From: a virus
Length of the DNA stretch: 20,449 nucleotides
UHGV virus genome: UHGV-0200630
Strand: one strand, 5' to 3'
Below are positions 1,267-20,449 of this stretch, piece by piece. The notes under the pieces were generated by a model that did not search any database, was not told the origin of the DNA, and was given only the letters and a program-made list of their open reading frames with translations. The position numbers were made by a program, and so were the translations under genes. Position 1 is the stretch's first letter. Every line of letters starts with the position of its first letter.

Positions 1267-1463
1267 TAGTTCACTCCTGACATCAGAAGCGTCCCAAATG
1301 TTTTTATCTGTTCTTCGCTGATAAGAATCATTTTAGGTGCTTTAATATCGAAAGCTTGCAGAACAGGAACAGCAACAGTGTTATAAGTTATAGTAACGAG
1401 AAATAGAACAATAAGATAATCTTTAGCGTGTTTTGCCAATGCTTGGAGATATTTCATTTTCAT
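1266..1463 (-). CDS. Small single-pass membrane protein (65 aa), possible lysis-associated (holin-like) protein
   Basis: ATG at 1463-1461 with AGGTGA SD; one hydrophobic helix (DYLIVLFLVTITYNTVAVPVL); overlaps the 3' end of the endonuclease VII gene by 41 nt. Real coding status uncertain. Confidence 0.4.
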   Translation of the reverse strand: MKMKYLQALAKHAKDYLIVLFLVTITYNTVAVPVLQAFDIKAPKMILISEEQIKTFGTLLMSGVN

Positions 1464-1899
1464 ATTTCACCTTTATTTGGTTTGAGTAGACTTTTTCAAG
1501 CTCCTTTTTCGTTTTAAGGTTTGAACCTGTAATAGCTTTCATCTCAGAAAGATTTTTTCGAGAGAACGCCTTCTTTAAATCAGGAATAAGTTGTGGATGC
1601 GTAGGATTGTCTGAGTAGTCTTTTTCAAGATACTGAACAAGATTCTTCAAAAACTCGATGTAGTCAATTTTCCCATCGAGACCCGAACGTTTAAACTGAT
1701 GTTTTATTCTGCCCTCTAGGACGTTTGCTTGAGCGATTAATAATCCTCTGCATCTGCCTGCGTTAGAGCCTGTTAATATATGGTCATGGTCAAGATGGGC
1801 TTTATTAACTTCATGAATCTTTATGCCAGTTAAAGCACAAAGACCTTTTTGCTTTTGAAAGAGTTCTTGCTTATAAATCGGAATCTCTTTTCTTTTCAT
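1423..1899 (-). CDS. Endonuclease VII-like Holliday junction / branched-DNA resolvase (T4 gp49 family), 158 aa
   Basis: Translation contains HLDHDH, GLL..N..EG, KHQFKRSGL.GK.DY.EFL.NL..YL..DY and FSR...SEM, matching T4 endonuclease VII as I recall it. ATGA overlap with upstream gene; AAGAGGA SD. Confidence 0.85.
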   Translation of the reverse strand: MKRKEIPIYKQELFQKQKGLCALTGIKIHEVNKAHLDHDHILTGSNAGRCRGLLIAQANVLEGRIKHQFKRSGLDGKIDYIEFLKNLVQYLEKDYSDNPTHPQLIPDLKKAFSRKNLSEMKAITGSNLKTKKELEKVYSNQIKVKYENEISPSIGKTR

Positions 1900-2180
1900 T
1901 TTCCTCTTAGAACTGCTAGGTCGATATCTAGCTTTGCTGTTCTTCCTTCTAAATTCTTCAAATCAGATTTGACCTCTCGAAATTCATCCTGTTGTCGTGT
2001 TATATCGCTTATAAGCGAAGCATCTTTTGCGTCATTAACGGCTATGCTTTTTTCGATGTCTGAGAAACGTTTCTCAAGGTCAATTCGTTTTTCATTGTTT
2101 GATTTAATTTCGGCATAAACCCAAGCCAAGAAACCTCCTAGAGCACCCAAGATGGAAATGATCAGTGCTATATCGACCAT
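1896..2180 (-). CDS. Membrane-anchored coiled-coil protein (94 aa), candidate i-spanin-like or other lysis/envelope protein
   Basis: N-terminal TM segment (IALIISILGALGGFLAWVYA) followed by charged, heptad-like region; ATG at 2180 with AAGGAGA SD (6-nt spacer). Confidence 0.6.
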   Translation of the reverse strand: MVDIALIISILGALGGFLAWVYAEIKSNNEKRIDLEKRFSDIEKSIAVNDAKDASLISDITRQQDEFREVKSDLKNLEGRTAKLDIDLAVLRGK

Positions 2181-2225
2181 CTTGAATCTCCTTTTTAAAA
2201 GACCTCCTTGTCTTTATTTAGAACG

Positions 2226-5915: not shown

Positions 5916-6331
5916 TATTTTCTCCTGTTAAAAATTAATTCAAAATTAAAATCGTTGACGTTTATCAGTTGATATTTATTTTCATGTTCAACTAATGCTC
6001 TATTATTAAAAACGATAGATGCAACGTAATAGACACGGTTTTTATGTTTTTTCTTAATTAAGATAACCGAGCCTGTTTCTATAGTTTCTGATTTCTCAAG
6101 ATGCGTTTCACACGCTTCGAGAACGTTATTAAAACCAGTTAGCTCTTTGCAAATCTTGAGACCTTCAGGAATACTCGTGTATTTGTCTTTTAATTTGTCT
6201 GTGTATTCAGTAGCACAAACAAGGTCGATATATTCAGCAACAAGGATATTACAGTCGTTTTGACCGAAAACGTGTTGCTGATTGATATAGCGGTTAAGTA
6301 ATTTTGATAAGTCAGCTTGAAATTTAAACAT
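5915..6331 (-). CDS. Putative tail tip assembly protein with lambda gpK-like NlpC/P60 cysteine peptidase domain (138 aa)
   Basis: Immediately upstream of the J-like gene with TAATG coupling; GAGGTG SD. Motif FGQNDCNILVAEY resembles the Cys-containing motif of NlpC/P60 (lambda K C-terminal domain); later HxN/His candidates. Functional call is tentative. Confidence 0.55.
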   Translation of the reverse strand: MFKFQADLSKLLNRYINQQHVFGQNDCNILVAEYIDLVCATEYTDKLKDKYTSIPEGLKICKELTGFNNVLEACETHLEKSETIETGSVILIKKKHKNRVYYVASIVFNNRALVEHENKYQLINVNDFNFELIFNRRK

Positions 6332-6362
6332 GTTTCACCTCTGACTTTATTTAGAGCCAAAA

Positions 6363-6386
6363 AAAGACCCCTTGCGGAGTCTTTTT
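6363..6386. terminator. Bidirectional intrinsic terminator-like hairpin
   Basis: A-tract, imperfect GC stem (GACCCC/GGAGTC with TTGC loop), T5 on plus strand and U7 on minus strand; sits directly 3' of the 158-aa gene. Confidence 0.5.
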
Positions 6387-6388
6387 AA

Positions 6389-6865
6389 TTAATCACTTGA
6401 TGTCAAATCAACAACACCAGAAACAACAGGACCACCATCAACACTCAGTGTCATTGTCAGACCTTGAACTTCTGATTCACCGCCATTATGAACAGCGCTT
6501 GACAAGAAGCCGTTATAAACTTTTGCAACACCCAGTTTTTTAGTAGCATCAATCCAATAAACGATTTTAAACTGACCACGTTTACCATCTTCCGCAAGCT
6601 TAATCAGAACATCATGAACGCTTTCTGGAATATAGTTAACGGTCAAGTCGATATCAGGAACAGAGCCACGACCAACCAGTTTACGGGAGTATTTGTGAGA
6701 GAAGTTAGGAGCTGTAATAACTTCGCGTTCAATACCCGTAGAAGGGAATGCACCAGTTTCAGGAATTTCAACAAACTTTTCTGAATTCAGATCGGTGTTT
6801 GCAATTTCTGAGTTATAGAACACACTGACGTAAGAGCCAGCAAAAATATCAAATTTGTCTGCCAT
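6389..6865 (-). CDS. Putative abundant virion structural protein (158 aa), possibly tail tube/distal tail-like
   Basis: Isolated between two hairpins (6904-6926 and 6363-6386), suggesting separate high expression; AGGAAA SD. Gly/Val/Ser-rich sequence that I read as beta-rich. Family not recognised from sequence alone. Confidence 0.6.
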   Translation of the reverse strand: MADKFDIFAGSYVSVFYNSEIANTDLNSEKFVEIPETGAFPSTGIEREVITAPNFSHKYSRKLVGRGSVPDIDLTVNYIPESVHDVLIKLAEDGKRGQFKIVYWIDATKKLGVAKVYNGFLSSAVHNGGESEVQGLTMTLSVDGGPVVSGVVDLTSSD

Positions 6866-6903
6866 TTTTAATTTCCTATTTGAGTTAATATAGTTTATTT
6901 AGC

Positions 6904-6926
6904 AAAGGGGATTTCTCCCCTTTTTG
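6904..6926 (+). terminator. Hairpin with T-tract on plus strand (antisense to operon) between fiber gene and 158-aa gene
   Basis: GGGGA (6907-6911) / TCCCC (6916-6920), loop TTTC, followed by TTTTTG on plus strand; only UUUGC on minus strand. Confidence 0.4.
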
Positions 6927-9900
6927 TTATTTAGCTTCAAGTTCTTTAACGCGAGCACTTAATTCCTTGATAGCATTAACCAGCAACGCGTTTACAGCAG
7001 CAGAGTTAACACCAAGAATTTCGTCAGGTCCGAAAGAACTAACAGCTTCTGGTAATACTTCTTTCAGTTCTTGAGCAATAATACCTGCTTCACGAACTTC
7101 GAATGAATATTCAGTTTTGACTAAATCAGATTTCTTATCGTATACGTAACCAGTAAGTTTCTCGACTTTATCAACTGCGTTTTCAATTTCTTCAAAGTTC
7201 GATTTCAGACGTTTATCAGAAGTGCTAACCCATTGGATCGCATTTGCTGTTCCATTACCGAGGAATAGATAGTCTGCACCACCAATGTGAAGTGCAGCCT
7301 CGGGAGCAGAACTACCCGGATTATAAATGTCCATCGCAGCACCGTATTCTGTGCCCCAATGAACATGTTTCCAGATATTAATACATTTATCACGAGTCTG
7401 AGCTTCAACAATCATTCCCGCAGGACGATCACGCCACGCTGACCACTGCGGCCAACCGTCAACGACACCTTGAATCATCGCATTGCTTGCCCCGGTTCTA
7501 ACGTTTCCAACATAAACACCGCGAGACTCATTATGGGTGTTAATCGTAATTGACCGATCAATTGTCAAACCAGCTGTGTTAAAGGTTGCGATTTGAATAC
7601 CATTAGTAAAAATGCTTAAGTTTCCGTCCGTAACTTGTCGAATACCTGTATCGTTATCACCAAACGCGATTGAGTTTCCACCTAGTACGTTGTCCGTGTT
7701 AATACCAAAACTTGTTAAACGATTTGTTTCAACAGAAGGAGTATTAATTTTTCCAGGAACAGCAAAACGACCATCGATATCAAATTCATAATTAGCCATT
7801 TTACCGAACGTCGATTCTTCTTTCGTCCCAACACGAAGAATTCCTTTGCCCCATGAATTAGCTGGTCCTCTAATAGTTCCTAATTCAACAACAGTAGAGA
7901 ATCCGTGTCCTACGGAAACAGAGTTCATCGAATATCCGGGATAATAATCACTTTCACCAGCAACTGCTCCGAAGTTAATCTGCATAGGAGCATTTTGTCT
8001 CCATTGATTAGCGTAAGCATGATCATTGGTTGCTGCCCATCTTGCACCATCAATTTGAATTGTATTATGCTGAATATCCATCGCGGTATTAGTACCAGTC
8101 TGAACCGTCACGGATCCGTTAGTTCTAAGAGTAACACCAGATGACGTAGAGAAATCATTTCTCATATTCTGAGACCAGACAATATCGAGATTCTCACTTG
8201 TCTTGCCAAGAATCCAGGTATTATTGCGACCGTCCATATTGCCAGACATATAACTTGCCTGATTCGACGCAGGAATATTCAACTGAATAGCATTAGATTC
8301 GCCGTTGACAGAAACACCACTTGCAAGATTCAATCGACCATTGGTGTTTAATGAACCCATCCAATATTCAGGAGTATCACCATGAAACCAACATATAGAG
8401 TTATCCAGCCTATCGTCAGGATGATTAGCCATTGCCAACTCATGATAAATGGATCCAGCACCAACGGCTCTAACTTTTCTTAAATGATTTGATTGTTGCT
8501 CAGGAGTGTTCCAGTCGGGTAAGCTTTCCGAGTCATACCATCCGTAAGGCTTATTATTATAAATCGTTTTATAGAAACTTGCAGGGCCAGCAACACCAAG
8601 ACCTTCTTTAGTATCAATATAAGTTCTGCCTGAACCTCTCAGATAATGATTATATTTTCCACCATTAACTAATCCGAAATAAGTCGTGGCGTCACCAATG
8701 TTATTACCGTCGGTTGTCGTATCGATATTAATTAATGAATAACCTTCAGGAGCCATCAGATTCGAATCACCATCATCACTTCTGAAACGGAAATGAGTTT
8801 TTCTATTAAAGTAGTTTTCAGATCCTGCAATAGAAGCTGTTACAACGTTATTTGAATAGAAGTTTAACCATCCGTCTTCTCTCCATTTAAAACCAGTGTC
8901 GGAATCACCAATCGCGATAGAGTTTAAACCCAGTGAATTTCCAACGGCAAAGTTGCTTGCAACGGACATTAAAGGAGTTGTTACTGCATCAGTGATTCTA
9001 GCTTGACCTGAAATATCAATTGACATTCCTCTGCCTGTTTTTCCCCAAGTCATGGTCATTAGATCTAATGCGTCGGTTCCTTCGTTAGCATCACGACGAA
9101 ATAACAGTCGATCATCCGTATCCGTTGCGTATGCAATTTGATGAATAGTCTTTGAAGTTCTGCCGTGGTTTTCAATACTCAGAACATCACCGTTATTACC
9201 AGCAGGTGTAACTTTCAAAGTTCCTGCGTATACATTACCAGCAGCATGAACAGAAGGAACAGTTAAGTCGCCAGTCATCGTGTCGCCAGCTTTATTAACT
9301 TTGGTGTCAATCATGTCTTTCAGAGTCTGATTATCAACAGTCAAACGGTCATTAACTGCTTTAATCTTTTCGTCAGCATCAGCTTTATTCGCATCAACTT
9401 TCGTATTAATAGCCGTGTCGTTCTGGTCAACTTTTGAATTCAGATTATCAACGCGAGTGTTAATAGCAGCGTCGTTAGCATCAACTTTCTGTTCGAGTTT
9501 CGTCAGGTCAGCACTTGAACCTGTTTGAACTTTGCTGATTTCAGAATCAACGTAATCTTTACGCGTAGCGCTATCAGGAGCAACAGGAGCAGCAGGCAAA
9601 GATAACTGACCATTACCGTTAAGCACGAAGTCAGAACTCTCTCCTGTAGCTTTTCCTTTCGCTACCGTAACACGAAGTTCACCTTTAGAGTCTGTCTGAG
9701 CAGGAGAACTAATACGTGCTTTTGCTTTGTCGTGTTCATCAGCAAAAACAATATCGCTTTTATCAAGATTTTTTAAAGTCAGATTAGAATCGGATTCAAT
9801 ATCACTTGCTTTAATTTTTCCAGTAAAGGTCTGACCGCCTTCAACAACAGCATCAGCACCATTACCGATGTTAATAACAGCGTCACCGAATTTAGTAAAA

Positions 9901-10010
9901 ATCTTTTTATCGGCTAAGTTAATAGCGATTTCACCATCAAGCATGTTTTTCGCTTCTGGCTTTCTTCCGGCGACGTCTGTTCTATAATGTTTAACTTTAT
10001 TATTTGCCAT
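6927..10010 (-). CDS. Tail fiber protein with C-terminal intramolecular chaperone / Peptidase S74 autoproteolytic domain (1027 aa)
   Basis: C-terminal ~97 aa (SDKRLKSN...GIIAQELKEVLPEAV...LVNAIKELSARVKELE) match the S74 intramolecular chaperone domain of endosialidases and L-shaped tail fibers. Upstream KAGDTMTGDLTV fiber motif and Asn/Asp-rich repeats. Weak SD; start probably coupled to upstream gene. Confidence 0.85.
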   Translation of the reverse strand: MANNKVKHYRTDVAGRKPEAKNMLDGEIAINLADKKIFTKFGDAVINIGNGADAVVEGGQTFTGKIKASDIESDSNLTLKNLDKSDIVFADEHDKAKARISSPAQTDSKGELRVTVAKGKATGESSDFVLNGNGQLSLPAAPVAPDSATRKDYVDSEISKVQTGSSADLTKLEQKVDANDAAINTRVDNLNSKVDQNDTAINTKVDANKADADEKIKAVNDRLTVDNQTLKDMIDTKVNKAGDTMTGDLTVPSVHAAGNVYAGTLKVTPAGNNGDVLSIENHGRTSKTIHQIAYATDTDDRLLFRRDANEGTDALDLMTMTWGKTGRGMSIDISGQARITDAVTTPLMSVASNFAVGNSLGLNSIAIGDSDTGFKWREDGWLNFYSNNVVTASIAGSENYFNRKTHFRFRSDDGDSNLMAPEGYSLINIDTTTDGNNIGDATTYFGLVNGGKYNHYLRGSGRTYIDTKEGLGVAGPASFYKTIYNNKPYGWYDSESLPDWNTPEQQSNHLRKVRAVGAGSIYHELAMANHPDDRLDNSICWFHGDTPEYWMGSLNTNGRLNLASGVSVNGESNAIQLNIPASNQASYMSGNMDGRNNTWILGKTSENLDIVWSQNMRNDFSTSSGVTLRTNGSVTVQTGTNTAMDIQHNTIQIDGARWAATNDHAYANQWRQNAPMQINFGAVAGESDYYPGYSMNSVSVGHGFSTVVELGTIRGPANSWGKGILRVGTKEESTFGKMANYEFDIDGRFAVPGKINTPSVETNRLTSFGINTDNVLGGNSIAFGDNDTGIRQVTDGNLSIFTNGIQIATFNTAGLTIDRSITINTHNESRGVYVGNVRTGASNAMIQGVVDGWPQWSAWRDRPAGMIVEAQTRDKCINIWKHVHWGTEYGAAMDIYNPGSSAPEAALHIGGADYLFLGNGTANAIQWVSTSDKRLKSNFEEIENAVDKVEKLTGYVYDKKSDLVKTEYSFEVREAGIIAQELKEVLPEAVSSFGPDEILGVNSAAVNALLVNAIKELSARVKELEAK

Positions 10011-10022
10011 TTTCTTTATCCG

Positions 10023-11048
10023 TTAAAATACTCCTGCGTCTAAGGTTTCTCCTAACGCTACACAATTAATCTCTAATGGCGTTGGTTTATTACTTGGAGA
10101 ATAGACTTCTTTGCCTTTGACCTTGACAGAAGTTGAGTTAATTTCATTACTATTTAGAGCCAAGATTTCACCTTGTGGCGCAGAAATCTTTTTACGAACG
10201 TTCAGATATTCCTGAATAGTCAAAGATCCTTTGAGTTCTCCACCAGTAATAGGCAAAGCATTAATATCTTCAGGAGTTGGACGTTCAAGTTCTGTATAGA
10301 CTTTGACCCACGGAGATTCAGTAACAGTTTCACCGCTTTGTTGTTTGTTTCTGATTCTGATGCTTGGATTACCGACTGACGAACCAATAAGCTCCCAACC
10401 TTGACCATCAGGATGCTGAATAGCCATAGCAGACGTGCCAGAGTTATAAGGGTTATCGCTGTTTGTTGCATCGACTGTTACACATCTGTTACCAGTTAAT
10501 AATCCTAAGTCTTTAACGCCTGCGATTTCTTCTGTACCAGCACCAATACCATAATCGCCAACGTTTAACGGAACTGAGAATTCAGCAAAACCTGTAAACA
10601 ACTGACCATCAGGAGAAAGATTAAAAGTTGTTGTAACGACTGAGTTAGCCGAACCTGATGTTTCTTTCTTCGTTACATAAGCATTAAAAATATGATAAAG
10701 ACCAGCATCATTATCTTTCTTTGTTTCTCCATCGATAACATAAAGACTTCTGAATCTAAGGAGTTTCTTTTCCATAAGAGCTTCATCAAGCAACTGATAA
10801 ACTGGGTCAGAACTGTCTTCAAATAAGCTTATTGAAGTGTCGTTAATTGTTACGTCACCTGAAAGTTTCGTTGTGAAATCGGTTCTGTAATCTTCTAGTG
10901 TCTGAACTTCTTTTCTAAATCCGATAACAGGGAATGCAGCCAGTTTATCAGTGCTTACATAACCTGGGTCGTTATATCCTGGGATTTCAACGATTAGCGG
11001 ATTAACTGAAACTCTGACGTTATTTCCTACAAAAATATCGTTTGTCAT
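10023..11048 (-). CDS. Virion structural protein (341 aa), possibly major tail or fiber-associated protein
   Basis: Long ORF in the structural block, 7 nt downstream of the preceding stop. N-terminal half has a pattern reminiscent of major tail proteins; C-terminal part (PTPEDINALPITGGELKGSLTI) resembles fiber attachment regions. Family unresolved. Confidence 0.65.
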   Translation of the reverse strand: MTNDIFVGNNVRVSVNPLIVEIPGYNDPGYVSTDKLAAFPVIGFRKEVQTLEDYRTDFTTKLSGDVTINDTSISLFEDSSDPVYQLLDEALMEKKLLRFRSLYVIDGETKKDNDAGLYHIFNAYVTKKETSGSANSVVTTTFNLSPDGQLFTGFAEFSVPLNVGDYGIGAGTEEIAGVKDLGLLTGNRCVTVDATNSDNPYNSGTSAMAIQHPDGQGWELIGSSVGNPSIRIRNKQQSGETVTESPWVKVYTELERPTPEDINALPITGGELKGSLTIQEYLNVRKKISAPQGEILALNSNEINSTSVKVKGKEVYSPSNKPTPLEINCVALGETLDAGVF

Positions 11049-11055
11049 TTTAGTC

Positions 11056-11454
11056 TCACATTAAGTATTCGAAAGTTAAAATTATTTGTGCGCTAACATG
11101 ACCATTTGATGCTTCACTATCATAATCAGTGAAGCTCGAACTTGGATAAATCTTATCGATTTTAAATGGGATAAGTTTTTCATGATTAGCTTTAATAGAA
11201 ATTAAGTCGTAAACGGCTTTGTGAACGCCTGTTTCGCTTTTCTCTGAGAAAATATCAATCGTAATACTAAGAACACTTGCAAGTTTCGATTGCAAACCGA
11301 TTCGCGTATATTCTTCTGTCATTCCTGGAATCATTACTTGAACAGGTTCTTTAACACCAGTTGTGAAAGCGTTTTTGACGTATTTCAGATTAAGTTCTTT
11401 AACGATTATTTCTTCCAGAGCGCGTTTAATTCCTAAACGTGGCAGATTAGTCAT
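11056..11454 (-). CDS. Putative head-tail connector/neck protein (132 aa from ATG at 11454; ORF open to TTG at 11532)
   Basis: ATG at 11454-11452 preceded by AGGAGA (about 9-nt spacer) and overlapping the stop of the upstream gene (ATGACTAA). The longer ORF-track version would start at TTG with no SD. Function inferred from position only. Confidence 0.5.
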   Translation of the reverse strand: MTNLPRLGIKRALEEIIVKELNLKYVKNAFTTGVKEPVQVMIPGMTEEYTRIGLQSKLASVLSITIDIFSEKSETGVHKAVYDLISIKANHEKLIPFKIDKIYPSSSFTDYDSEASNGHVSAQIILTFEYLM

Positions 11455-11743
11455 AGAATGATGTCTCCTGTTCGCCTTTAAATGCCAGATAACAATTAGC
11501 AAGTCCTGAACCATCATTAACAAGATACGCAATGGTATACAGAATCTCGTTTAATAGAACTTCATCTTCTTGCTTAACTTTATTGATATCAGCGGTTATA
11601 TAGATTGTCTCGCTTACTTGTCCGTTATCGTTGTTAATCTCAATTTCAACAATACCGAGTTCATCAGAATCGTTAATTTTGATTTTCTGTCCGAAACGAG
11701 TTAAGAAAGACTGTTTTTGTTTTTCTGAATATGGAAAAATCAT
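11447..11743 (-). CDS. Putative head completion / connector protein (98 aa)
   Basis: ATG at 11743 with AAGGAGA SD (5-nt spacer), immediately downstream of the capsid-gene terminator. Acidic small protein; function inferred from position only. Confidence 0.55.
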   Translation of the reverse strand: MIFPYSEKQKQSFLTRFGQKIKINDSDELGIVEIEINNDNGQVSETIYITADINKVKQEDEVLLNEILYTIAYLVNDGSGLANCYLAFKGEQETSFYD

Positions 11744-11777
11744 GTTGTCTCCTTTTTATTATATTTAGTCCAGAAAC

Positions 11778-11803
11778 GAAAAAAGGACTCCCGAAGGAGT
11801 CCT
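11778..11803 (-). terminator. Strong intrinsic terminator after the capsid gene(s)
   Basis: 8-bp stem AGGACTCC (11784-11791) / GGAGTCCT (11796-11803) with 4-nt loop, followed on the minus strand by U6 (11778-11783). Confidence 0.8.
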
Positions 11804-11823
11804 CTGATTATTCAGCAGTTTCA

Positions 11824-11853
11824 GCTTTCGCTTTCGCTTTTGCTTTTGCTTTT
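11824..11853. repeat. Five tandem hexamers GCTTTY (RAAAGC on the coding strand) in the capsid 3'UTR
   Basis: Read directly: gctttc gctttc gctttt gctttt gctttt, beginning immediately after the stop codon at 11855-11857 and ending before the terminator. Confidence 0.8.
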
Positions 11854-11854
11854 C

Positions 11855-12067
11855 TTAGGCTTGTTTTTCGTGCAGGAACAGACGATCATCAGCACAAACT
11901 TTCCAATCGATATCAGCCCAAACGCGAGGAACGATAGCGCCTTTGTTACGGTAAGTTGTGTCGTCTAGGTCAAGAGCAAGACCTTCCCACTCAGCTACGG
12001 TTACAGCAGAGAAGTCACCAGAGATAACCTGACCTTCTTTAACAAGACCGGAACCGATAAACATCAT
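11855..12067 (-). CDS. Small capsid-associated ORF (70 aa) overlapping the capsid gene 3' end in the +1 frame; separate protein or frameshift extension
   Basis: ATGATG at 12067-12062 lies 29 nt inside the capsid ORF in the +1 frame; only a weak GGGCGGA SD. Shares the terminator at 11778-11803 with the capsid gene. Confidence 0.45.
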   Translation of the reverse strand: MMFIGSGLVKEGQVISGDFSAVTVAEWEGLALDLDDTTYRNKGAIVPRVWADIDWKVCADDRLFLHEKQA

Positions 12068-13760
12068 GTCCGCCCAGTTTGTTCAGGTCGTCGATGATAT
12101 AACCAGCAACACCAGCGTCACGCAGAGTGGTTTTCAAATCACCTTCAAGAGCAGCAGCCATCAAATATTTGAACTTGTCCATTGCTACGCCGTCGCCTTT
12201 AGCTTTAGCAGCTTCAACAACGAATTCTTTGTAGGTCATTCCCATCTGTTTTGCTACTAACTGAGCAACGATAGACTGAGGAGCTTTTGCGTCGGTAATA
12301 GAACCGAACATCAGACCTTCCAGTTTAGCGCGTGAGAAATTCACGATATGGTCAGAAATGAACGCACCCAGATTAGGCAGAGTCAACAGAGCTTGACGAG
12401 AAATCGGGTTACCACCAGTAAATGTCTTAGGCATAAACTGAATGTTTTCGAATTTGCTTTCGCCTTCTGGAGATTCACCGTTTTCATCAACGAAACCGAA
12501 TGCATCAACACTTGATTTTGTCTGCTTAGGAACAGAAATCGGAGTAGTCAGACCAGTCAGGAAGTTAACTCCCAGCTTATCAGCAACAGTGTCTTTCAAC
12601 AGCATTTCAACGAATGAATCATAACGCTGAACAGTTTCTTGTACTGCGGAAACAGTTGATACAGTGTTAATAGCGCGTTTGCCTTGCAGAGCACTAACTG
12701 GCATATAGATACCTTGAGAAACGTTAGCACCGCGCATCAGACGCTTACGGGACATTTCTTGAGTATATTCAGCAGCAGCACCGCGAACAGCTTTACCATT
12801 CATCATAGAGCGAACAGCATCGCCAAGGTCGAATTTATTTTCCAGAGTTTGTTTAGTATCTTTAGTCATGTTGCGAATCACCGTTGCAGATTTATTAGGT
12901 TTAATAGAGCGTTTGAATTGACGTGCGGTCATGCCTTTAGCGATAGCGCTTGCAACGTCTTTCTGTGCTACTTTGTAGCGTTGTGCGATTTCAAGAATTT
13001 CTTCCGCTTCTTCTTCGCGTTCTTCTTCTGTCAGTTCGTCACCAGCAGGAACAGCAGCAGGAGCGTCATCAGTTTTTTCAACAGCAGAATCACCAGCGTT
13101 TTCATTTTCAACGACTACTTCTTCCAGAATTTCTTCACGCTTTGCACGATCTTCATCGGACAGCATTTCAATTTCATCGATAGTCATTTCTGCCAGTTCA
13201 TCTTTAGTCATTTCATCAATACGTTTCATTCGAGTACCTTTGTTAAGTTTGTTTGTTGTATCTGTATTTAGTAGTCTTCCCAAACCGACTTTATCGTCAG
13301 CAGGAACAGTGACGAAAGAAATTTCATATGGTGCCCATTTCGTAACAATAAGATTGTCGCCTTCTAAGTGATATTCATTAATGTCATATCCGAAAGAGAT
13401 TTTACTAATTGTTCCTTCTTGAACTTTTGCACCGATTTCTTTAGCTAATTCACCGTGTTGACTGAATTGGACTTTTGCTCGTCCTATTTTGTCTTCATCG
13501 ATTCGAACAGAATCAGGAATAACGATTCCCAAGTGTTTATCAAAATCATGGTTAAACAGCAAAGCAGCACCGTTATTAATTCGGGTCAAGTCAGCGTTAT
13601 GTGAGCCGTCATGAACGAGAATTTCATTAACAGTAATGTTTTGACCGTATTCATCCTGAATCTGTCTTTCAACAGGAGTTTCAGAACTGAACGCAATTTC
13701 AAAAACACCATCAACAGAATCAATACCCTGAACTGTGTAATCGCGCTTAAGTTTTAGCAT
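12039..13760 (-). CDS. Prohead protease (HK97 gp4 / Peptidase S78-like) fused to scaffold-like acidic linker and putative HK97-fold major capsid domain (573 aa)
   Basis: N-terminal ~170 aa carry protease-like motifs (LLFNHD....GIV, ISFGY). Residues ~180-270 are an acidic, helical Glu-rich linker (delta/scaffold-like). C-terminal ~300 aa are of capsid-domain size, directly after portal and before a strong terminator. AGAGGA SD. Confidence 0.75.
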   Translation of the reverse strand: MLKLKRDYTVQGIDSVDGVFEIAFSSETPVERQIQDEYGQNITVNEILVHDGSHNADLTRINNGAALLFNHDFDKHLGIVIPDSVRIDEDKIGRAKVQFSQHGELAKEIGAKVQEGTISKISFGYDINEYHLEGDNLIVTKWAPYEISFVTVPADDKVGLGRLLNTDTTNKLNKGTRMKRIDEMTKDELAEMTIDEIEMLSDEDRAKREEILEEVVVENENAGDSAVEKTDDAPAAVPAGDELTEEEREEEAEEILEIAQRYKVAQKDVASAIAKGMTARQFKRSIKPNKSATVIRNMTKDTKQTLENKFDLGDAVRSMMNGKAVRGAAAEYTQEMSRKRLMRGANVSQGIYMPVSALQGKRAINTVSTVSAVQETVQRYDSFVEMLLKDTVADKLGVNFLTGLTTPISVPKQTKSSVDAFGFVDENGESPEGESKFENIQFMPKTFTGGNPISRQALLTLPNLGAFISDHIVNFSRAKLEGLMFGSITDAKAPQSIVAQLVAKQMGMTYKEFVVEAAKAKGDGVAMDKFKYLMAAALEGDLKTTLRDAGVAGYIIDDLNKLGGHDVYRFRSC

Positions 13761-13776
13761 TACCAGTCCTCTGTTG

Positions 13777-13806
13777 GAGCGTCTTTCGACGCTCTTTGTT
13801 TTTCTG
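13777..13806 (+). terminator. Hairpin with plus-strand T-tract between portal and capsid genes
   Basis: 7-bp stem GAGCGTC/GACGCTC with TTTC loop (GAAA on the mRNA strand), followed by TTTGTTTTTCTG on the plus strand; no U-tract on the minus strand. May be an antisense terminator or mRNA processing/stability element. Confidence 0.4.
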
Positions 13807-13819
13807 AATGTATTTAGTG

Positions 13820-15370
13820 TTATTCCACCGAGTTATCCGAATTAATTTCAGCAACTTCCACTTGAGCATCAGCCGTTAATGCAGCAGGTGCAGCAGCAAC
13901 TTTAATTTGATTATCGTATTTCGGAACATAACGAGTTCTTTCTTGTTCAACCTGAGCAAATACAATATCCGGGTCTTCACCGCGAGCAATAATAATATCA
14001 GAAGCAGATTTGAATCCGTTTTCAACATCAAAAATATCCTTCTGAGTATCTTTAATTGGGTCGATACTTTGCCATTGAGGATATGTCCAAACAGTCTGAC
14101 GAAGAACTGAAGGAATAGTTGTCATTTTCAAATTAACGGTTTCTCTGATAATTGACCATTGTAACCAACGTTCAAAAATAACATCAAAAACCTGTTCTTT
14201 AATATTACGCTGAACTGATTTAAACATTACGCGTTGTGCAAGATCACCGAAGCGGGCAGCAGAATAGTTAATATTTGCTGTGTCACCTTTCCAACCTTGT
14301 TTGTAAAAACCGTAACCCATAGCAAGCAGGTCTTCCAGACGATTCGTGAAGTTCATAAAGTCGTCACCGCCCTGAGTAGAGCTAAACTGCTTTATATCGT
14401 AACCAGCAGGAAGTTTATGAATTGTCCCTGATTCAAAGTTTTGAATAACATCAGGAGATTCTTCAATGCCTTCGTTATCGCTATCAATTTCGATATTATC
14501 TTGACCGTCTTTGTCTTGAGTGATGAAACCCATAGAGCTTGCTGCGGCGCGTTTCTGAATCAACGTTGCTTTTGTGAAAGCATCATATTGGTTCATAACA
14601 TCAATATTCGCTACACATTCAGGAATGCCTCTGCGTTGATCAGGGAACAATTCTCTGTAATAGTGAATAATATTTTCAGCGTCGATACCTTCAGATTTAC
14701 CAGATGAAGTCTGTGTTGCTTTGCTTATTGTGTTAAACCAGTAACGAACTGGAACATCATCGTTATTATATTCGATACCATCAAGAACATAACCGTTGTC
14801 GGAGGTTTCTCTGTCGCCAAATTTACAGCGTGAAGCTTCGATAATTTCAAGCTTAAATTCAGTATCAGATTCGTGAATACGAATAAAAACCTCGCCGTCA
14901 ACAAATCTTGAACGTTCAACGAGTTCTTGAAATCTGCGCCAGTTCATTCTTTCATTTTTACTGAAACGTTTTGCTGAACTTGACCAATAGCTGAACTGGT
15001 CCATAATCATAGAGTTCAGTTTCTTGCTTGGCTTTCCGTTTGTTCCCAGAATACGCAATTGTGGGTTAATACCTTCACCGATAACGTTATCAACTTGATA
15101 TTGAACAGCACGTTTACCAACTGGTGTATTAATCGAAAGAGTTCGAGACATATTACGAATGCCATCGGCATAAGTTCGAATCTCGTTATTAATCGTTGCA
15201 GTCGTAATCAGGTTCTCTTGAAAGTCGCCATCTAAACGGTCAGTTCGAGGACCAAGAATACGCTGTAACTGTGAGCCATATGCTTGCTCGTTATCAATTA
15301 CCAGTTTCTGTTTCTGTTTACGTGTTTTCGGTTCTGCTTTTTTAAATGTGAAAAAATCTCTAATACTCAT
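13820..15370 (-). CDS. Portal protein, lambda gpB-like (516 aa)
   Basis: Size and position (after terminase and W-like gene, before protease-capsid); ATGA start-stop overlap with upstream gene. Portal identity is by synteny and size plus general sequence character; exact family needs HMM confirmation. Confidence 0.8.
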   Translation of the reverse strand: MSIRDFFTFKKAEPKTRKQKQKLVIDNEQAYGSQLQRILGPRTDRLDGDFQENLITTATINNEIRTYADGIRNMSRTLSINTPVGKRAVQYQVDNVIGEGINPQLRILGTNGKPSKKLNSMIMDQFSYWSSSAKRFSKNERMNWRRFQELVERSRFVDGEVFIRIHESDTEFKLEIIEASRCKFGDRETSDNGYVLDGIEYNNDDVPVRYWFNTISKATQTSSGKSEGIDAENIIHYYRELFPDQRRGIPECVANIDVMNQYDAFTKATLIQKRAAASSMGFITQDKDGQDNIEIDSDNEGIEESPDVIQNFESGTIHKLPAGYDIKQFSSTQGGDDFMNFTNRLEDLLAMGYGFYKQGWKGDTANINYSAARFGDLAQRVMFKSVQRNIKEQVFDVIFERWLQWSIIRETVNLKMTTIPSVLRQTVWTYPQWQSIDPIKDTQKDIFDVENGFKSASDIIIARGEDPDIVFAQVEQERTRYVPKYDNQIKVAAAPAALTADAQVEVAEINSDNSVE

Positions 15371-15861
15371 GATGGATTCGTGAACCTCGCTTTAATAGTA
15401 ACAATCGGAGATTTACCGTTTGCCATTTGTTCTGACTTAATCAGATTTGCTAAGTTAGCTAAAAGTCGTTTTCGAGCCATAAGCAGCGAATCAAGCGTTT
15501 CATAAACGAATGATTTACCGTTAATACTCATTTGTTGAATAGCTTCTTCGTTACTTGTCAGACGATACTGAATAACTGTATCGATATCGTTAATCATTTC
15601 TCTGAGTTGTTCTCTTTTCGTTTTTGAAACGAATGGTGATTTCACTTTGATAATGCTGTTACTGATAAGCGCACCTTCATAGAGAACAACAACAGAAAAA
15701 GTTCCTTCGATAAAATCTGATGTGTCCACCGAGATATTCGCTGGACAATCAGTTTGAGAAAACAATTTAGTTTCAGTTGAGCCTATGGAGACTGTTGCAC
15801 CTTCAGGATTATAAACAGCGAGTTTTTCACCGATGTAAATTTCTGAATTTGATTTTTGCAT
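15367..15861 (-). CDS. Head-tail joining protein with gpW-like C-terminal domain (164 aa)
   Basis: Located between large terminase and portal, as gpW is in lambda. C-terminal ~60 aa (EQLREMINDIDTVIQYRL...GKSFVYETLDSLLMARKRLLANLANL) resemble the gpW fold pattern; extra ~90-aa N-terminal domain. AAGGAGA SD. Confidence 0.6.
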   Translation of the reverse strand: MQKSNSEIYIGEKLAVYNPEGATVSIGSTETKLFSQTDCPANISVDTSDFIEGTFSVVVLYEGALISNSIIKVKSPFVSKTKREQLREMINDIDTVIQYRLTSNEEAIQQMSINGKSFVYETLDSLLMARKRLLANLANLIKSEQMANGKSPIVTIKARFTNPS

Positions 15862-15881
15862 TGAGTTCTCCTTTCTTATAT

Positions 15882-17765
15882 TTATAATCCGAAACCACGA
15901 GGCTTATTAACTGGTCTGTTTCGTTTGATAATGTTTCGACGAGGTTCATGAGTTTGAATAACAGGAGAATTTGTTTCGTTTTGTTCTTCTGGCATTTCAA
16001 TATCAGATTTAGCAGCGAGTTTCCTCCACTCGTGAAATTTGATTTTCTCTAGAACTTGCAGACGCGCGCAATAACCGTAGTTAAAGCAGTCAAGACCTTC
16101 GTTACGAACACCGCCTTGTTTAATAACCCATCTAACAGTATTACCAGAGCGTTTTAATTCTTCGGACATAAGCTGTTCGCAGTAATCATCTGGAACATCA
16201 TCAGAGATTTCGACTCTGACTGGTGTATTTCCAGATTTCACGCTTCTGTTTAGCAGTTCACGAACTAAGTTTTTTCCTTGGTTTACACCAATCATATAAA
16301 GTTCATAACCACCGGTTTTCGTGATTTTCGTTGGAACATAAGGGGCATCAACAGAGCTGGCACCTTTAATTGCTTTCAGGTTTGTCCACTGAGAGCAGAA
16401 ACGATAGATTGTTTTAGTTGCTCGACCGTTTGAGCTATCGACGTTCACCCACGCTAAAGGAACCTTTCTTCCCAAAGCTGTTCTGAACGGTGCTTTAACG
16501 TATGCAAGAAGTTCTTTATAAGCAGGGGAATCGATAACCTCAGCGTTCATTGTCATAAAGCTACGATGTGCAAGAATATAAACGGTTCGTTCGTTGTGAC
16601 CCATCAAGGTTACTTCTAAACGGTCTTGCTGTTGGTCAACCCCAGCGGTTAAAAACAACGTGTCTTCTGGTATATTGCTGATGCCGATATTCGTCTTGAG
16701 TGTTTCTAATTTACTAACCTCAATGTCTTCGTTTAAATCATCAAACGGTAGACCAAGAACAGTGTTATAAAACGTTGACAAGCTGAACGTTTGCCATGCT
16801 TGCTTATAGTCTTCAACAACTGATTTGATAGAACTCATTGGGCTGTATAAACGACTTACGTGGAATCCAGCAATTCGACTTTCAGGTTGATGAATAATCC
16901 ATTCACCTTGTTTAATTGCTCGTGCTCGGTCGCCTTCAGAGAAAGCGTGATGACATTCAGGACATTCAATTCTGGCAGAGTTAGGATCAGGTAATGATTT
17001 ACCATCGATTTTTACCCAGTCGAATTTGATATTCTCCCACGTCAGTTCGTGCTTATGACCACATGTAGGACAGGGAACATGATACTTGCGCTTGTCGGAT
17101 GCTTCATACTGCGTGTGGATAGCACCGTATTTACTTGTAGGCGTCGAGCTAATGAAAACACGAGCGTCTTCACCGAACGTCGTAGCACGTTGTTCCGCGA
17201 TGATAATCGGGTTGCCTTCTTCTGTGTCTGTTTCAACTGCGTCAACTTCATCAAGCAACATCAGCGGAAGAGTTTTACCGCGTAAGTGAGAAGGGCTATT
17301 GAGCGACATGAAATACCAAAAGCCTCCAGCACGTAGCTGAATTTGACTGGTGTTATTCACTGCGTTTCTGTCGTTCTTGTCGGTGACGATTCGTTGCATT
17401 TCTTCCGATTCGTCAATCATTGGGCGAATCTTGCCTGATAGCCATTGAGTCGTCTCTTTACCGGTTGACTGCAAGACACCAGCGTTACCGGGATCAGTAG
17501 CAGACTTATAGAACAGAATTCCGTTCAAGATGGTTGTCTTGCCAATCTGGGCAGAAGTCTCGAAGACGATTTTCTTCTTACGTTCTTTAATGACGTCAAT
17601 CATGCCTTTCTGAAACTCAAACAGTTTCATCGGCTGCCCTGTATAAGGACCATCAGGGAATTTCAGGTACTGTTCGACCCACTCGGACGGAGTGTAGTCA
17701 GGAGGTGGCATTAAAAAGCGCTTTGCATTCTGTAAGATACTTTTCAGTTTATTTGAGTTTTTCAT
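15882..17765 (-). CDS. Terminase large subunit, lambda GpA family (627 aa)
   Basis: Walker A-like FETSAQIGKTT; zinc-ribbon-like CPTCGH...ECPECHH; LTAGVDQQQDRLEV and NEGLDCFNYGY match lambda gpA segments as I recall them. First gene of the leftward operon. Confidence 0.9.
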   Translation of the reverse strand: MKNSNKLKSILQNAKRFLMPPPDYTPSEWVEQYLKFPDGPYTGQPMKLFEFQKGMIDVIKERKKKIVFETSAQIGKTTILNGILFYKSATDPGNAGVLQSTGKETTQWLSGKIRPMIDESEEMQRIVTDKNDRNAVNNTSQIQLRAGGFWYFMSLNSPSHLRGKTLPLMLLDEVDAVETDTEEGNPIIIAEQRATTFGEDARVFISSTPTSKYGAIHTQYEASDKRKYHVPCPTCGHKHELTWENIKFDWVKIDGKSLPDPNSARIECPECHHAFSEGDRARAIKQGEWIIHQPESRIAGFHVSRLYSPMSSIKSVVEDYKQAWQTFSLSTFYNTVLGLPFDDLNEDIEVSKLETLKTNIGISNIPEDTLFLTAGVDQQQDRLEVTLMGHNERTVYILAHRSFMTMNAEVIDSPAYKELLAYVKAPFRTALGRKVPLAWVNVDSSNGRATKTIYRFCSQWTNLKAIKGASSVDAPYVPTKITKTGGYELYMIGVNQGKNLVRELLNRSVKSGNTPVRVEISDDVPDDYCEQLMSEELKRSGNTVRWVIKQGGVRNEGLDCFNYGYCARLQVLEKIKFHEWRKLAAKSDIEMPEEQNETNSPVIQTHEPRRNIIKRNRPVNKPRGFGL

Positions 17766-17910
17766 AATCAGCCCTAAGTGGATGAACCCAAAATGGATTT
17801 CATTTCTCTGTCTGTATTTATGAAAACCTCCATAAAATTATTTCTAAGAGTTCTTGCACCTGGATATCCGCCTGTTAAAGTCTGTTCCAACAAAACACAG
17901 GAGAACGACA
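17766..17910. promoter_or_regulatory. Divergent intergenic control region between terminase operon (leftward) and HTH gene (rightward)
   Basis: 145-bp AT-rich non-coding gap between divergent start codons; contains TAAAAT (17833-17838) and other -10-like hexamers, but no pair I can confidently assign. Confidence 0.4.
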
Positions 17911-18345
17911 ATGAAAACTGAACTGACTGTTGAAAACCGAATTGCTTCTGAATTAAACGCTGGTACTGATATGTCAGAGAGTAAGCTTGCTGAAAAATAC
18001 GATGTTCCTCGTTCTATTGTTCGTCGTGTTAAAGCTAACATCGAGGAATATACAGTTGTTGAAGAAGTTAAAGCTGAAAATACGGTTGAAGTTGTCGATG
18101 CTGTTGAAGCACAACGAATCGTGAATCAGGCTTTCGGATTCGATAACATCGAAAAACTTCTTGCTAGCAAATCGGCTAATAAAAAACCATCTGCGATTAG
18201 CATGATTATTTTTAAACGTACAGAGGGGGATTTTGAGTTATTCAAAAAACAGATGTCAGACAAAACTGCCGCGTATCAGAGGGATCAGTTTCTTCGCTGT
18301 GTGAATAGCACTAAAGGAGAAATGAGTGAAACTGAGAATGCCTAA
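17911..18345 (+). CDS. Helix-turn-helix DNA-binding protein (144 aa), candidate early regulator or terminase small subunit-like protein
   Basis: ATG at 17911 preceded by AGGAGA (6-nt spacer); the ORF-track start at 17854 has no SD. N-terminal region (IASELNAGTDMSESKLAEKYDVPRSIVRRV) is HTH-like. Confidence 0.65.
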   Translation: MKTELTVENRIASELNAGTDMSESKLAEKYDVPRSIVRRVKANIEEYTVVEEVKAENTVEVVDAVEAQRIVNQAFGFDNIEKLLASKSANKKPSAISMIIFKRTEGDFELFKKQMSDKTAAYQRDQFLRCVNSTKGEMSETENA

Positions 18346-18583
18346 CGAATGGAGGCGATTTTTTAAATGTATAATAAATGCAAGTTTGTAGCTAAATTAA
18401 TTACACTAGATTTAAAATTGCAATATTAAATAGGAAGCAAAGTGAGGAAGTTCAGAATTAAGGAACTATTTCATACCTGCTAGTTTAGAGAGCCGACTAT
18501 TCATCGGATACTTATTTGATTGAAAGAAAAATTGAACAAGTGATATCATTCGGTTATTATTTTTTAGCAACAAAGGAGAAAGC

Positions 18584-18763
18584 ATGATTGCTAATGTGGT
18601 TTATAAAAACGGTGATGTTAAGACCGAAGAGTTAACAGTTGACGATGCCGCTGTTCGCTTAAAAACAGACTCAGACGTTCAAGCGATTGAATTTTTCGAA
18701 AGTGGATTAAACACTCTGCTTGAGAAAAAACTTGAACAAGCATTAGTGCTTGGTCTGAAATGA
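18584..18763 (+). CDS. Small hypothetical protein (59 aa)
   Basis: ATG at 18584 preceded by AAAGGAGAAAGC (SD with 5-6-nt spacer); followed 5 nt later by a strong terminator. Below the 60-aa cutoff of the ORF track. Confidence 0.5.
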   Translation: MIANVVYKNGDVKTEELTVDDAAVRLKTDSDVQAIEFFESGLNTLLEKKLEQALVLGLK

Positions 18764-18768
18764 CAAAA

Positions 18769-18791
18769 GGGAGCTTAGTGCTCCCTTTTTT
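18769..18791 (+). terminator. Intrinsic terminator
   Basis: Stem GGGAGC (18769-18774) / GCTCCC (18780-18785), loop TTAGT, followed by T6 (18786-18791). Confidence 0.8.
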
Positions 18792-19164
18792 ATTGAATTT
18801 CAAATGAGTAGATTGTAAACCACAGATACTGGAGGCATCTTTGGGGCGCAAGGAATCAAATAGTTGAGAACTTGATTACTCAGTTCTTTAGAACGATCTG
18901 CAAACAGCAGGGCGTACTTCCTGCGAAGCTGAAAGCGTAGAGTCAAAAGCAATAAGGTCGATAACGAAGCAGGAAGCATCAGGTGAACTTGATAACAGGG
19001 AATTGACTTGGAGTATCATTAGGTCAGTAGAAGCAGGGAGAAGCGAGGAGGGATGATGTAGCAGTCAATCATTACTATCATCAAAGATAGGGCTTGCCCG
19101 TTCGACGTAGCGATAGCGAAGGAGAACTCATTAACGTTATTTCAATTAATTATCGATCGTTATG

Positions 19165-19193
19165 TTTATTGATTGTCAGACGAACAGTATAAT
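19165..19193 (+). promoter_or_regulatory. Candidate sigma70-like promoter (TTTATT-N17-TATAAT)
   Basis: Perfect -10 TATAAT at 19188-19193, weak -35 TTTATT at 19165-19170 with 17-bp spacer. Would direct rightward transcription through the mini-hairpin cluster. Confidence 0.25.
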
Positions 19194-19249
19194 GCAGTTA
19201 TCCAGTAATCATTATTATCCAGATCTGAAAAATAATATTGTGAGCGTAG

Positions 19250-19400
19250 CGAACGCGCGAAGCGCTAATAATCTTTATCTAGAAACATCTAATCAGTAGC
19301 TAGTAATCAAGTTCGATAGTGTTATCTGTCGCGCTTCGCGCTAATGTTTATCAATTAGGGCTTCGCCCGCGCTTCGCGCAATCTGCTCGCTTCGCTATGT
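19250..19400. repeat. Cluster of GCGAAGC / GCTTCGC mini-hairpin motifs
   Basis: Read directly: gcGCGAAGCgc at 19257-19267; gcGCTTCGCgc at 19331-19341; ggGCTTCGCcc and gcGCTTCGCgc at 19358-19379; GCTTCGC at about 19390-19396. Additional GCGAAGC at 18923-18929. Confidence 0.75.
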
Positions 19401-19498
19401 TTTCCAGGTTTTGTACTGCTTCTATATCCTTCCAGTTCATCTTTATCCAATTGTTCTTATAGGGCGATTTTTTCTAGGGTCCATGCACTTCTCCGAGT

Positions 19499-19542
19499 CG
19501 CATCGATGCGTTATCGATGCGTTTTGATGTGCATCAATGCAC
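19499..19542. repeat. Operator-like array: 12-bp palindrome, 2 exact tandem 11-bp repeats, 14-bp inverted repeat
   Basis: CGCATCGATGCG palindrome 19499-19510; ATCGATGCGTT at 19502-19512 and again at 19513-19523; GTGCAT-CA-ATGCAC at 19529-19542. Confidence 0.8.
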
Positions 19543-19728
19543 CTGCTTTTCACTAAATTATTTTTCGGACTTTGTTTACACTTTCGGTGAACTATATAAA
19601 TATTAGTATGAACACAGAGAGTTTCTTCTTCCTCGTTATTTTCTCTCGTTTGTTTACTACTGACTTTATCCGTCATAAAATAAGATATAAGCAATTAGCT
19701 TAGTTCATTTAAAAATTCCTTAAGTTTA

Positions 19729-19754
19729 AAGCACTCTTCGGAGTGCTTATTTTT
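19729..19754 (+). terminator. Intrinsic terminator / attenuator upstream of the right-end genes
   Basis: 8-bp stem AAGCACTC (19729-19736) / GAGTGCTT (19741-19748) with TTCG loop, followed by ATTTTT. Confidence 0.75.
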
Positions 19755-19778
19755 CAATTCAATAAAAAAGGCAACCCC

Positions 19779-19937
19779 ATGAAATTTATACCTAACAAAT
19801 TCGAAATTGAATCTCGCTTAGACTCTGGTGAGACATTTCAGCAAATTGCAGAATCTAAACAAATGAATAAAGCAACGATGTATAATGCTTGCAAAAAACG
19901 TAATATCAGAACTCAACCAATCAATAAAGGCAAATAA
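19779..19937 (+). CDS. Small helix-turn-helix protein (52 aa)
   Basis: ATG at 19779 with weak AAGG SD 8 nt upstream; the ORF-track start at 19743 is a GTG inside the terminator hairpin. SGETFQQIAESKQMNKATMYNACKK is HTH-like. Confidence 0.5.
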   Translation: MKFIPNKFEIESRLDSGETFQQIAESKQMNKATMYNACKKRNIRTQPINKGK

Positions 19938-20391
19938 ATTGAATTTCAAATTTGCAGTCTTCGAAAATCTAGACAGAACAGTTAAAGCAAGCCTGAACAG
20001 AAATATTATCAAAGTTAATAGAATGACCAATAACAAAAACAGCCTGAAAGCTCTTGTTAAAGCTATAGATATTCATCGTAATGTTCGAGCTAAGATGTTA
20101 CAGAAGATTGAAAATGCTGTGACTGTAAAAAATATGCATAGCTTCGAAATCGGTACGACCGAAGTTAATAATCTGCCTGCAATCGTTGCTTATACAACCG
20201 ATAATGCTGTTATCGTTGCTTGTGAAATTAACGGTAAAAAGAACTCGTGGAAAGCTTTCTGTTCAGATCTAAGAATGCAGAAGATCAAAGACACCGAGCA
20301 GTTTGTTCAGATGTATACTGGTGAATTTATTGAAATCATCGAAAGTATTGAATTTCCGACTGAGCAGAGACTAAATAGCTGCGCGGAATAG
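19885..20391 (+). CDS. Hypothetical protein (up to 168 aa; start ambiguous: ATG 19885, TTG 19939 or ATG 20023)
   Basis: Long ORF in the +1 frame relative to the 52-aa HTH ORF, overlapping it. None of the candidate starts has a strong SD. Stop codon TAG at 20389-20391 lies inside the right ITR. Family not recognised. Confidence 0.45.
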   Translation: MLAKNVISELNQSIKANKLNFKFAVFENLDRTVKASLNRNIIKVNRMTNNKNSLKALVKAIDIHRNVRAKMLQKIENAVTVKNMHSFEIGTTEVNNLPAIVAYTTDNAVIVACEINGKKNSWKAFCSDLRMQKIKDTEQFVQMYTGEFIEIIESIEFPTEQRLNSCAE

Positions 20392-20448
20392 TAGATCACT
20401 GAAAGGGAACTCAGCCCGGATTGTGCGATCTGATCAATCGCCAAACCA
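20371..20448. repeat. Right terminal inverted repeat (78 bp), reverse complement of 1-78
   Basis: Read directly; one extra base (a, 20449) beyond the repeat at the right end. Confidence 0.95.
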
Positions 20449-20449
20449 A

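Follow-up and report, generated by a model that had tools for sequence, protein, structure and literature searches.

The 19-bp iterons of phage lambda lie inside the O gene, the Nu1 R sites flank an IHF site beside the Nu1 gene, and both O and Nu1 have winged-helix or helix-turn-helix (HTH) folds. In plasmid R1, parC comprises ten repeats that flank and overlap a promoter, and the sites of P2 Cox and 186 Apl overlap promoters or attP; these repeats are bound cooperatively by ParR, Cox and Apl, which are ribbon-helix-helix or winged-HTH (wHTH) proteins of 70–120 amino acids (aa). A further arrangement is the late leader of lambda, pR'-6S RNA-tR', controlled by Q antitermination. Here we describe a control region in UHGV virus genome UHGV-0200630, an Escherichia coli prophage sequence of 20,449 nucleotides that was analysed at its full length and is referred to as the window. 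The region holds a short array of direct repeats, two tandem promoter candidates (P1 and P2) and a leader ending at an intrinsic terminator, followed by genes for a 52-aa HTH protein (the small HTH) and a coiled-coil protein (Table 1). Comparison with related elements somewhat favours the explanation that the repeats are recognition sites for the N-terminal domain (N-domain) of the coiled-coil protein, the whole forming a feedback module on the P1/P2 region.

The comparison set consisted of about 12 diverged lineages of the same element, with 65–76% DNA identity to the window in the non-coding region. They came from E. coli genomes (L002, L125), from public assemblies found via the 52-aa protein, a nearby 144-aa GntR-like wHTH protein and the coiled-coil protein (L004–L007, L106–L121), and from metagenome and viral contigs (L086, L092).

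An earlier note on this DNA had read a 12-bp palindrome, two tandem 11-bp copies and a 14-bp inverted repeat as operator-like palindromes upstream of a promoter-like box, a terminator and the start of the small HTH gene, all of which lie where it placed them. The 12-bp palindrome is by itself unremarkable, since the window contains 10 perfect palindromes of this length against ~6 expected when the window is simulated by a first-order Markov model. No exact 11-bp tandem duplication other than this one occurs in the 20.4 kb; ~0.07 per window are expected, and any at all arose in 3.7% of simulations. Every lineage carries 3–4 direct repeats spaced 11 bp and then ~20 bp apart, and all type-A lineages, the class to which the window belongs, have the core CGATGC(G/A) two or three times, spaced 11 bp and then ~20–21 bp. 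The two tandem copies vary in concert, being ATCGGTGCGTT twice in L004 and TGCGATGC twice in L086, L117 and L125, where the units are not palindromic. The third copy differs by lineage (GTGCATCAATGCAC in the window, GTGCATCGATACGT in L002, GTGCATCGATGCAC in L004, GTGCATCGATGCGTT / GTGCATCGATGCGT in L005), and among relatives its dyad symmetry is lost and its motif retained; in L117 it is an exact inverted copy, as expected of a double-stranded DNA site.

At the same position, the type-A array is replaced by CCCAGTCACAA-CCCAGTCACAG plus TGAGTCATCAC in L109 and L111 (class B; 8833–8870 in L111) and by four CCCAGTTACG-like units in L121 (class C; 2462–2507), so that relatives carry non-palindromic arrays (CCCAGTCACA twice, CCCAGTTACG four times) in this place. 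The core reads CGATGCG in the window (class A), CAGTCAC in class B and CAGTTAC in class C, and the class B and C motifs differ at two positions only. A distant relative, L100, whose large terminase (TerL) is 75% identical, has its own repeats, made of AAATTGCATT units. These alignments indicate that the conserved feature is the direct repeats, not the palindromes, which are probably a by-product and not a selected feature because the type-A core ATCGAT is self-complementary. Of the operator-like palindromes first proposed, the behaviour of a protein-recognition site has thus stood, and dyad symmetry as the conserved feature has not. Further copies of the motif were sought elsewhere in the element and none was found, the motif being unique to the array site. 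Half-matches are possible in the P2 spacer of L110 and L111, inconsistently across lineages, and a scan of genome contigs for GGGCTTCGCCCG(N)CGCTTCGCG returned chance matches only, in high-GC genomes. Like ParR/parC of plasmid R1 and the "cox-box" arrays of P2 Cox and 186 Apl, the array has direct repeats with a period of ~10.5–11 bp near the promoter of the putative binder's operon, and the orientation of individual copies can vary. Unlike them, it has 3–4 copies only and lies clear of the promoters, and a coiled-coil protein of 200–300 aa is the candidate for binding it.

Repeat classes A, B and C track the class of the coiled-coil N-domain and not the two HTH proteins; L100, with the same gene order, adds a fourth N-domain type (class D). 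Class A N-domains are 44–98% identical to one another and 24–35% identical to those of class B or C, and the N-domains of classes B and C are 43% identical, a value that matches the similarity of their motifs. L110, of class A, and L111, of class B, have the same 146-aa wHTH protein and small HTH proteins that are 94% identical. At the DNA level this pair is 99% identical in the left 6.6 kb; to the right, the stretches that align, among them P1, P2, the terminator and the small HTH gene, are 92.5% identical. Two islands in this pair are unalignable: the repeat region (L110 8750–8922) and the codons of the first ~160 coiled-coil residues (L110 9349–9834). Such a joint switch of repeats and N-domain is what would be expected if the N-domain gave its protein specificity for the repeats. 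L108 and L109 share one 125-aa wHTH homologue, and the three small-HTH types, S1, S2 and S3, assort independently of repeat class: S2 accompanies classes A and C, and S3 occurs alongside A and B. The 52-aa and 144-aa proteins had been put forward as the ones to bind the palindromes; neither co-varies with the repeats, whereas the N-domain encoded by the next gene downstream does. As in lambdoid O/ori and Nu1/cosB, a repeated site and the N-domain of a nearby protein switch class together and the rest recombines freely. Unlike in those systems, the window units are 11 bp long and lie upstream of a promoter pair, and the protein has no recognised DNA-binding fold and a role that is so far a predicted one.

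Downstream of the array, the TTTACA of P1 matches the sigma-70 -35 hexamer at 5/6 positions and its TAAATA the -10 hexamer at 3/6, without the -7 T; an alternative reading with AATATT and an 18-nt spacer matches 9/12 hexamer positions overall. Judged on its hexamers, P2 is the better sigma-70 match; most lineages have TAAAAT or TAAATT as its -10 box, and it lies 72–83 nt downstream of intact P1. Promoter-like sites in 17700–20449 number 9 against 7.8 in shuffles, which is not significant on sequence alone. Across relatives, the pattern [T/C]TTACN, 16–18 nt, TAAANN is kept at P1 in 10 of the 11 lineages scanned and at P2 in all 11, with invariant boxes "TTGTTTAC" and "TAAA". Hexamers and spacer length are thus conserved at both sites, and the spacer sequences have drifted, as in sigma-70 promoters. 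The two have a 22-nt direct repeat in common (19558–79 / 19636–57). The single promoter originally placed before the leader corresponds to P1 and holds up as a promoter-like box, and the leader also contains P2 (TTTACT-17-TAAAAT). In L107 a homing-endonuclease remnant occupies the P1 position. A gene for a GIY-YIG-like homing endonuclease interrupts the sequence just past the P1-like box in L005–L007, L108 and L119, and the box is partly duplicated behind this gene, suggesting that the box drives transcription; this open reading frame of 222–236 aa, between array and P1 (L005 5057–5767), is absent from the window. Upstream of the array, a candidate promoter P0 (TTTAYN-17-TATAAT) is kept in 8 of 12 lineages, where the 17-nt spacer has diverged in sequence, and would transcribe the hairpin cluster described below as well as the repeat array.

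The promoter-like box, the leader (~145 nt) and the terminator before the HTH gene are conserved in about 11 lineages, bearing out this part of the earlier description. In all lineages a hairpin of -12 to -17.6 kcal/mol with T5–7 stands 20–30 nt before the small HTH gene. Its stem has switched between A-U and G-C pairs by compensatory changes (three sequences each way), and the stems of L004 and L121 are unrelated; the terminators were compared by per-lineage folding, as MAFFT left those of L004 and L121 out of register. By these comparisons, the hairpin at 19729–19755 is a genuine intrinsic terminator. The leader had also been read as an attenuator. A conserved antiterminator competing with the terminator was not found, RNAalifold on seven leaders giving the terminator helix only, so that there is no evidence for a classical attenuator; Rfam at gathering and permissive thresholds gave no family either, the best match being TarB, whose 29.9 bits fall short of the gathering score of 80.

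As in lambda pR'-6S RNA-tR', a promoter directly before an operon would give a short transcript stopping at a terminator, and expression of the operon would need read-through. Unlike in lambda, no Q-like gene was found, the downstream genes encode the small HTH, the coiled-coil protein and defence cargo and not late functions, there are two tandem promoters, and the array lies at least 31 nt upstream of the -35 box and not within the promoter. Transcription from P2 to the terminator (19688–19755) would yield an RNA of ~68 nt with a conserved, unpaired, AU-rich stretch, AAAATTCCTTAAG, beside the terminator. This predicted RNA resembles the product of a prophage-encoded Hfq-type small-RNA gene, with the differences that it has no Rfam match above threshold and that no target complementary to the stretch was found within the element.

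In the explanation we favour, the ATCGATGCGTT units and the degenerate third copy would be recognition sites about one helical turn apart, bound by the N-domain of the coiled-coil protein encoded two genes downstream. P1 and P2 would make a short leader ending at a strong intrinsic terminator, and read-through would therefore be needed for expression of the small HTH and the binding protein. Docked on its own upstream array, probably as a coiled-coil oligomer, the coiled-coil protein would tune transcription entering or starting in the P1/P2 region, giving feedback on the P0/P1/P2 unit. From the conserved repeats, promoters and terminator and the co-variation of classes we infer direct DNA binding and a regulatory consequence. 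A repeat array, tandem promoters and a terminated leader make an ordinary regulatory architecture and the protein family is an orphan; membership of the array/protein system in any named family could not be shown. The predicted partner of the repeats is the most useful new result.

Several observations weigh against this explanation. The co-variation rests on 3–4 classes, since B, C and D each amount in effect to one evolutionary event, and linkage contributes to the co-inheritance of the two islands, which are only ~430 bp apart. L086, with TGCGATGC repeats, has an N-domain 98% identical to that of L002, whose repeats are ATCGATGC; only the core class therefore co-varies, and flanking-base variants do not. 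In addition, the array overlaps neither P1 nor P2 in any lineage, the gap to P1 being 22, 23, 31, 36, 39, 56, 67 or ~160 nt without helical phasing; in the window, 31 nt separate the end of the array from the -35 box of P1. Having no promoter overlap and a variable distance to P1, it is neither an occluding classical operator nor a fixed-geometry activator site. Fixed activator positions at -71, -91 and -102 relative to P1 were rejected for the same reason, and the proposal of a repressor/activator-controlled promoter in either classical form did not survive.

The coiled-coil protein is intact in E. coli MS 115-1 (WP_001324719.1; 246 aa as annotated, ~228 aa from the TTG start). In the window its gene is cut at ~20362–20376, just past the N-domain, by the left end of ISEc33, an IS630-family insertion sequence; the ISEc33 end spans ~20362–20449, and one E. 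coli genome can have as many as 10 identical copies of this end. In a set of 1.84 billion representative proteins, the family accounts for only 15 clusters at 50% identity. Pfam, PHROG and NCBIfam recognise in it a coiled coil and, in some members, a C-terminal zinc ribbon, and nothing more; searches of cultured phages and plasmids yielded no homologues. Structure models of the N-domain are beta-rich, with a predicted local distance difference test (pLDDT) score of 81 in one of five models, and no winged-helix fold is predicted. Since family and fold assignments recognise no DNA-binding domain, DNA binding by this protein is put forward as a prediction.

The alternative that survives best retains the same protein–DNA pair and gives it another job. 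The repeats would be replication-origin iterons or a cosB/pac-type packaging site, the hairpin-rich non-coding DNA would be the rest of that site, and the coiled-coil protein would be a type-specific initiator or a small-terminase-like specificity factor. We consider this somewhat unlikely, and keep it as a serious rival because the 34-kb element (window plus L001/L003 and MS 115-1) lacks any recognisable initiator, small terminase or repressor and because the array borders a hairpin-rich conserved region. The array sits at the edge of 850 nt of conserved non-coding DNA beside TerL, packed with GCGAAGC-type mini-hairpins: the window has seven copies of this motif, six of them in 18923–19395, and 0/100 shuffles reached seven. 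Compensatory changes back the mini-hairpins, with G-C to C-G swaps in L086 and L005, and their orientation flips between 19266 and 19330. Hairpin-rich non-coding DNA likewise lies beside TerL in L100 and phage DCP80. An origin or packaging site would also fit the unconstrained position of the array relative to the promoters, and lambda O/ori and Nu1/cosB provide an analogy for a protein with a type-specific N-domain ahead of a conserved middle part. AT-rich DNA follows the array. Against such a role, the 11-bp units are shorter than typical iterons of 17–22 bp, the protein resembles neither Rep nor O in family or fold and, as noted, lacks plasmid or cultured-phage homologues and a predicted winged helix, the DnaA-box-like TTATCC motifs are not conserved among lineages, and the genes are transcribed away from TerL. 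That the array, the orphan protein and the 850-nt region together constitute the origin or packaging-recognition site of a little-studied enterobacterial prophage family is unlikely. If it were so, the protein would present a new DNA-binding fold with swappable specificity, and the ultra-stable, mirror-oriented GAA-triloop DNA hairpins would be single-strand signals.

Beyond the small GC hairpins, RNAalifold over 19195–19530 on both strands detected no net covariation, and a long-range helix between 19255–65 and 19331–41 was rejected, being unsupported in L005 and L086. A 21-nt inverted repeat, 90% complementary (18784–18804 / 19751–19771), brackets the non-coding region with each arm just past a terminator; by eye it is missing from L002, and chance T-runs and A-runs therefore probably account for it.

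The repeats might instead act as RNA, merely forming the stem of a Rho-independent terminator (hairpin 19499–19521 plus UUUU) that stops P0 transcripts before P1 and P2. P0 is conserved upstream, and a terminator scan scores the repeat hairpin as terminator-like. In the window, L002, L005, L092, L110 and L004 a hairpin of -9 to -12 kcal/mol is followed by a T-run of 4–5; these lineages are not independent support, because all share one motif. In L004 the A-to-G changes keep pairing via G-U on the + strand only, and an alternative hairpin of -21 kcal/mol with T5 is possible. L121 has a large-loop version, an inverted repeat followed by T5 that encloses the array, and L125 a separate GC hairpin with TTTT before P1. 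However, no hairpin forms in L086 (fold z-score 0.03), in L111 or at the array of L125, L117 has only TTT after the stem, and a class switch that tracks a protein domain is left unexplained. We therefore regard a purely RNA-based role as quite improbable. A terminator or roadblock insulating P1/P2 from P0 is nevertheless possible, because P0 reads into the array and type-A units form a hairpin with T4–5; the type-A hairpin with its T-run may also act as a terminator, though it is not universal, being absent from L086, L117, L125 and L111.

Last, it is highly improbable that the repeats are operators for the 52-aa HTH or 144-aa GntR-like wHTH protein, which are plausible DNA binders encoded nearby, the latter with a recognition helix conserved among type-A lineages, but were rejected as assorting independently of repeat class: L110/L111 and L108/L109 pair one wHTH protein with different classes, and the small HTH is just 33% identical in L092, where the repeats are unchanged, and 94% identical between L110 and L111, where they differ.

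The window is 99.9% identical to a ~34-kb element of E. coli MS 115-1 (3135117–3169011, between ybiT and ldtB), which carries a serine recombinase, a retron Ec67-family reverse transcriptase and a TIR gene. This is not the carrier of the original retron Ec67, which the literature places in a 186-related prophage (PMC6868368). The defence cargo of the rightward arm varies, with the reverse transcriptase and TIR gene in MS 115-1 and AAA_21/HNH and other genes in relatives. No close match to the region was found among cultured phages, and a tRNA search found none. A gap of 145 bp (17766–17910) separates the 144-aa wHTH gene from the divergently oriented TerL gene. Upstream of the conserved non-coding block, most relatives carry a NUMOD3 gene on the minus strand (L002 7178–7792) that is absent from the window. 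Three independent assemblies (L112, L113 and L114) end 0.4–2 kb downstream of the 144-aa homologue; repeated homing-endonuclease or insertion-sequence copies are the likeliest cause of these breaks, and a physical DNA end is a possible one.

Table 1 Features of the control region and its surroundings in the window (UHGV-0200630, 20,449 nt)
Feature	Position	Strand	Remarks
Genes for gpA-type large terminase, portal, HK97 protease-capsid fusion, tail and fibre proteins	71 to 17765	minus	
144-aa GntR-like wHTH gene	17911-18345	+	
59-aa gene	18584-18763	+	
Non-coding DNA	18764-19778		~1 kb
GC mini-hairpin GGGCTTGCCC	19090-99		GAA or TTC triloop
P0 promoter candidate	19165-19193	+	TTTATT, 17-nt spacer, TATAAT; reads towards array
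GC mini-hairpin GCGCGAAGCGC	19255-65		GAA or TTC triloop
GC mini-hairpin GCGCTTCGCGC	19331-41, 19369-79		GAA or TTC triloop
GC mini-hairpin GGGCTTCGCCC	19358-68		GAA or TTC triloop
12-bp palindrome CGCATCGATGCG	19499-19510		Read from sequence
Repeat hairpin from sites 1 and 2	19499-19527	+	10-bp stem, -12.4 kcal/mol, then TTTT
Exact tandem 11-bp units ATCGATGCGTT, two copies	19502-19512, 19513-19523		Read from sequence
Array sites 1 and 2, core CGATGCGTT	19504-19512, 19515-19523		Direct repeats in all type-A relatives
Inverted repeat GTGCAT-CA-ATGCAC	19529-19542		14 bp
Array site 3, degenerate copy GTGCATCAATGCACC, core CAATGCACC	19529-19543		20 bp from site 2; contains the 14-bp inverted repeat
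P1 promoter candidate	19575-19602	+	TTTACA, 16-nt spacer, TAAATA; predicted start ~19609-19611
TTTACA; TATATAAATAT	19575-19580; 19593-19603		TTTACA 33 nt past last palindrome
P2 promoter candidate	19653-19681	+	TTTACT, 17-nt spacer, TAAAAT; predicted start ~19688
Intrinsic terminator	19729-19755	+	8-bp stem, UUCG loop, T-run; 24 nt before start codon
Terminator stem AAGCACTC-TTCG-GAGTGCTT	19729-19748		T-run reaches 19755
52-aa HTH gene (small HTH, type S1)	19779-19937	+	ATG at 19779
N-terminal domain of the coiled-coil ("big") protein	19939-20376	+	~146 aa; TTG start at 19939

The proposed pairing would mark the control region of a family of prophages that carry defence cargo. If the proposed pairing of repeats and N-domain is true, it would give the first functional handle on this orphan family, as a sequence-specific nucleic-acid binder with naturally swapped specificity classes, and the cognate sites of at least three of these classes would already be in hand.
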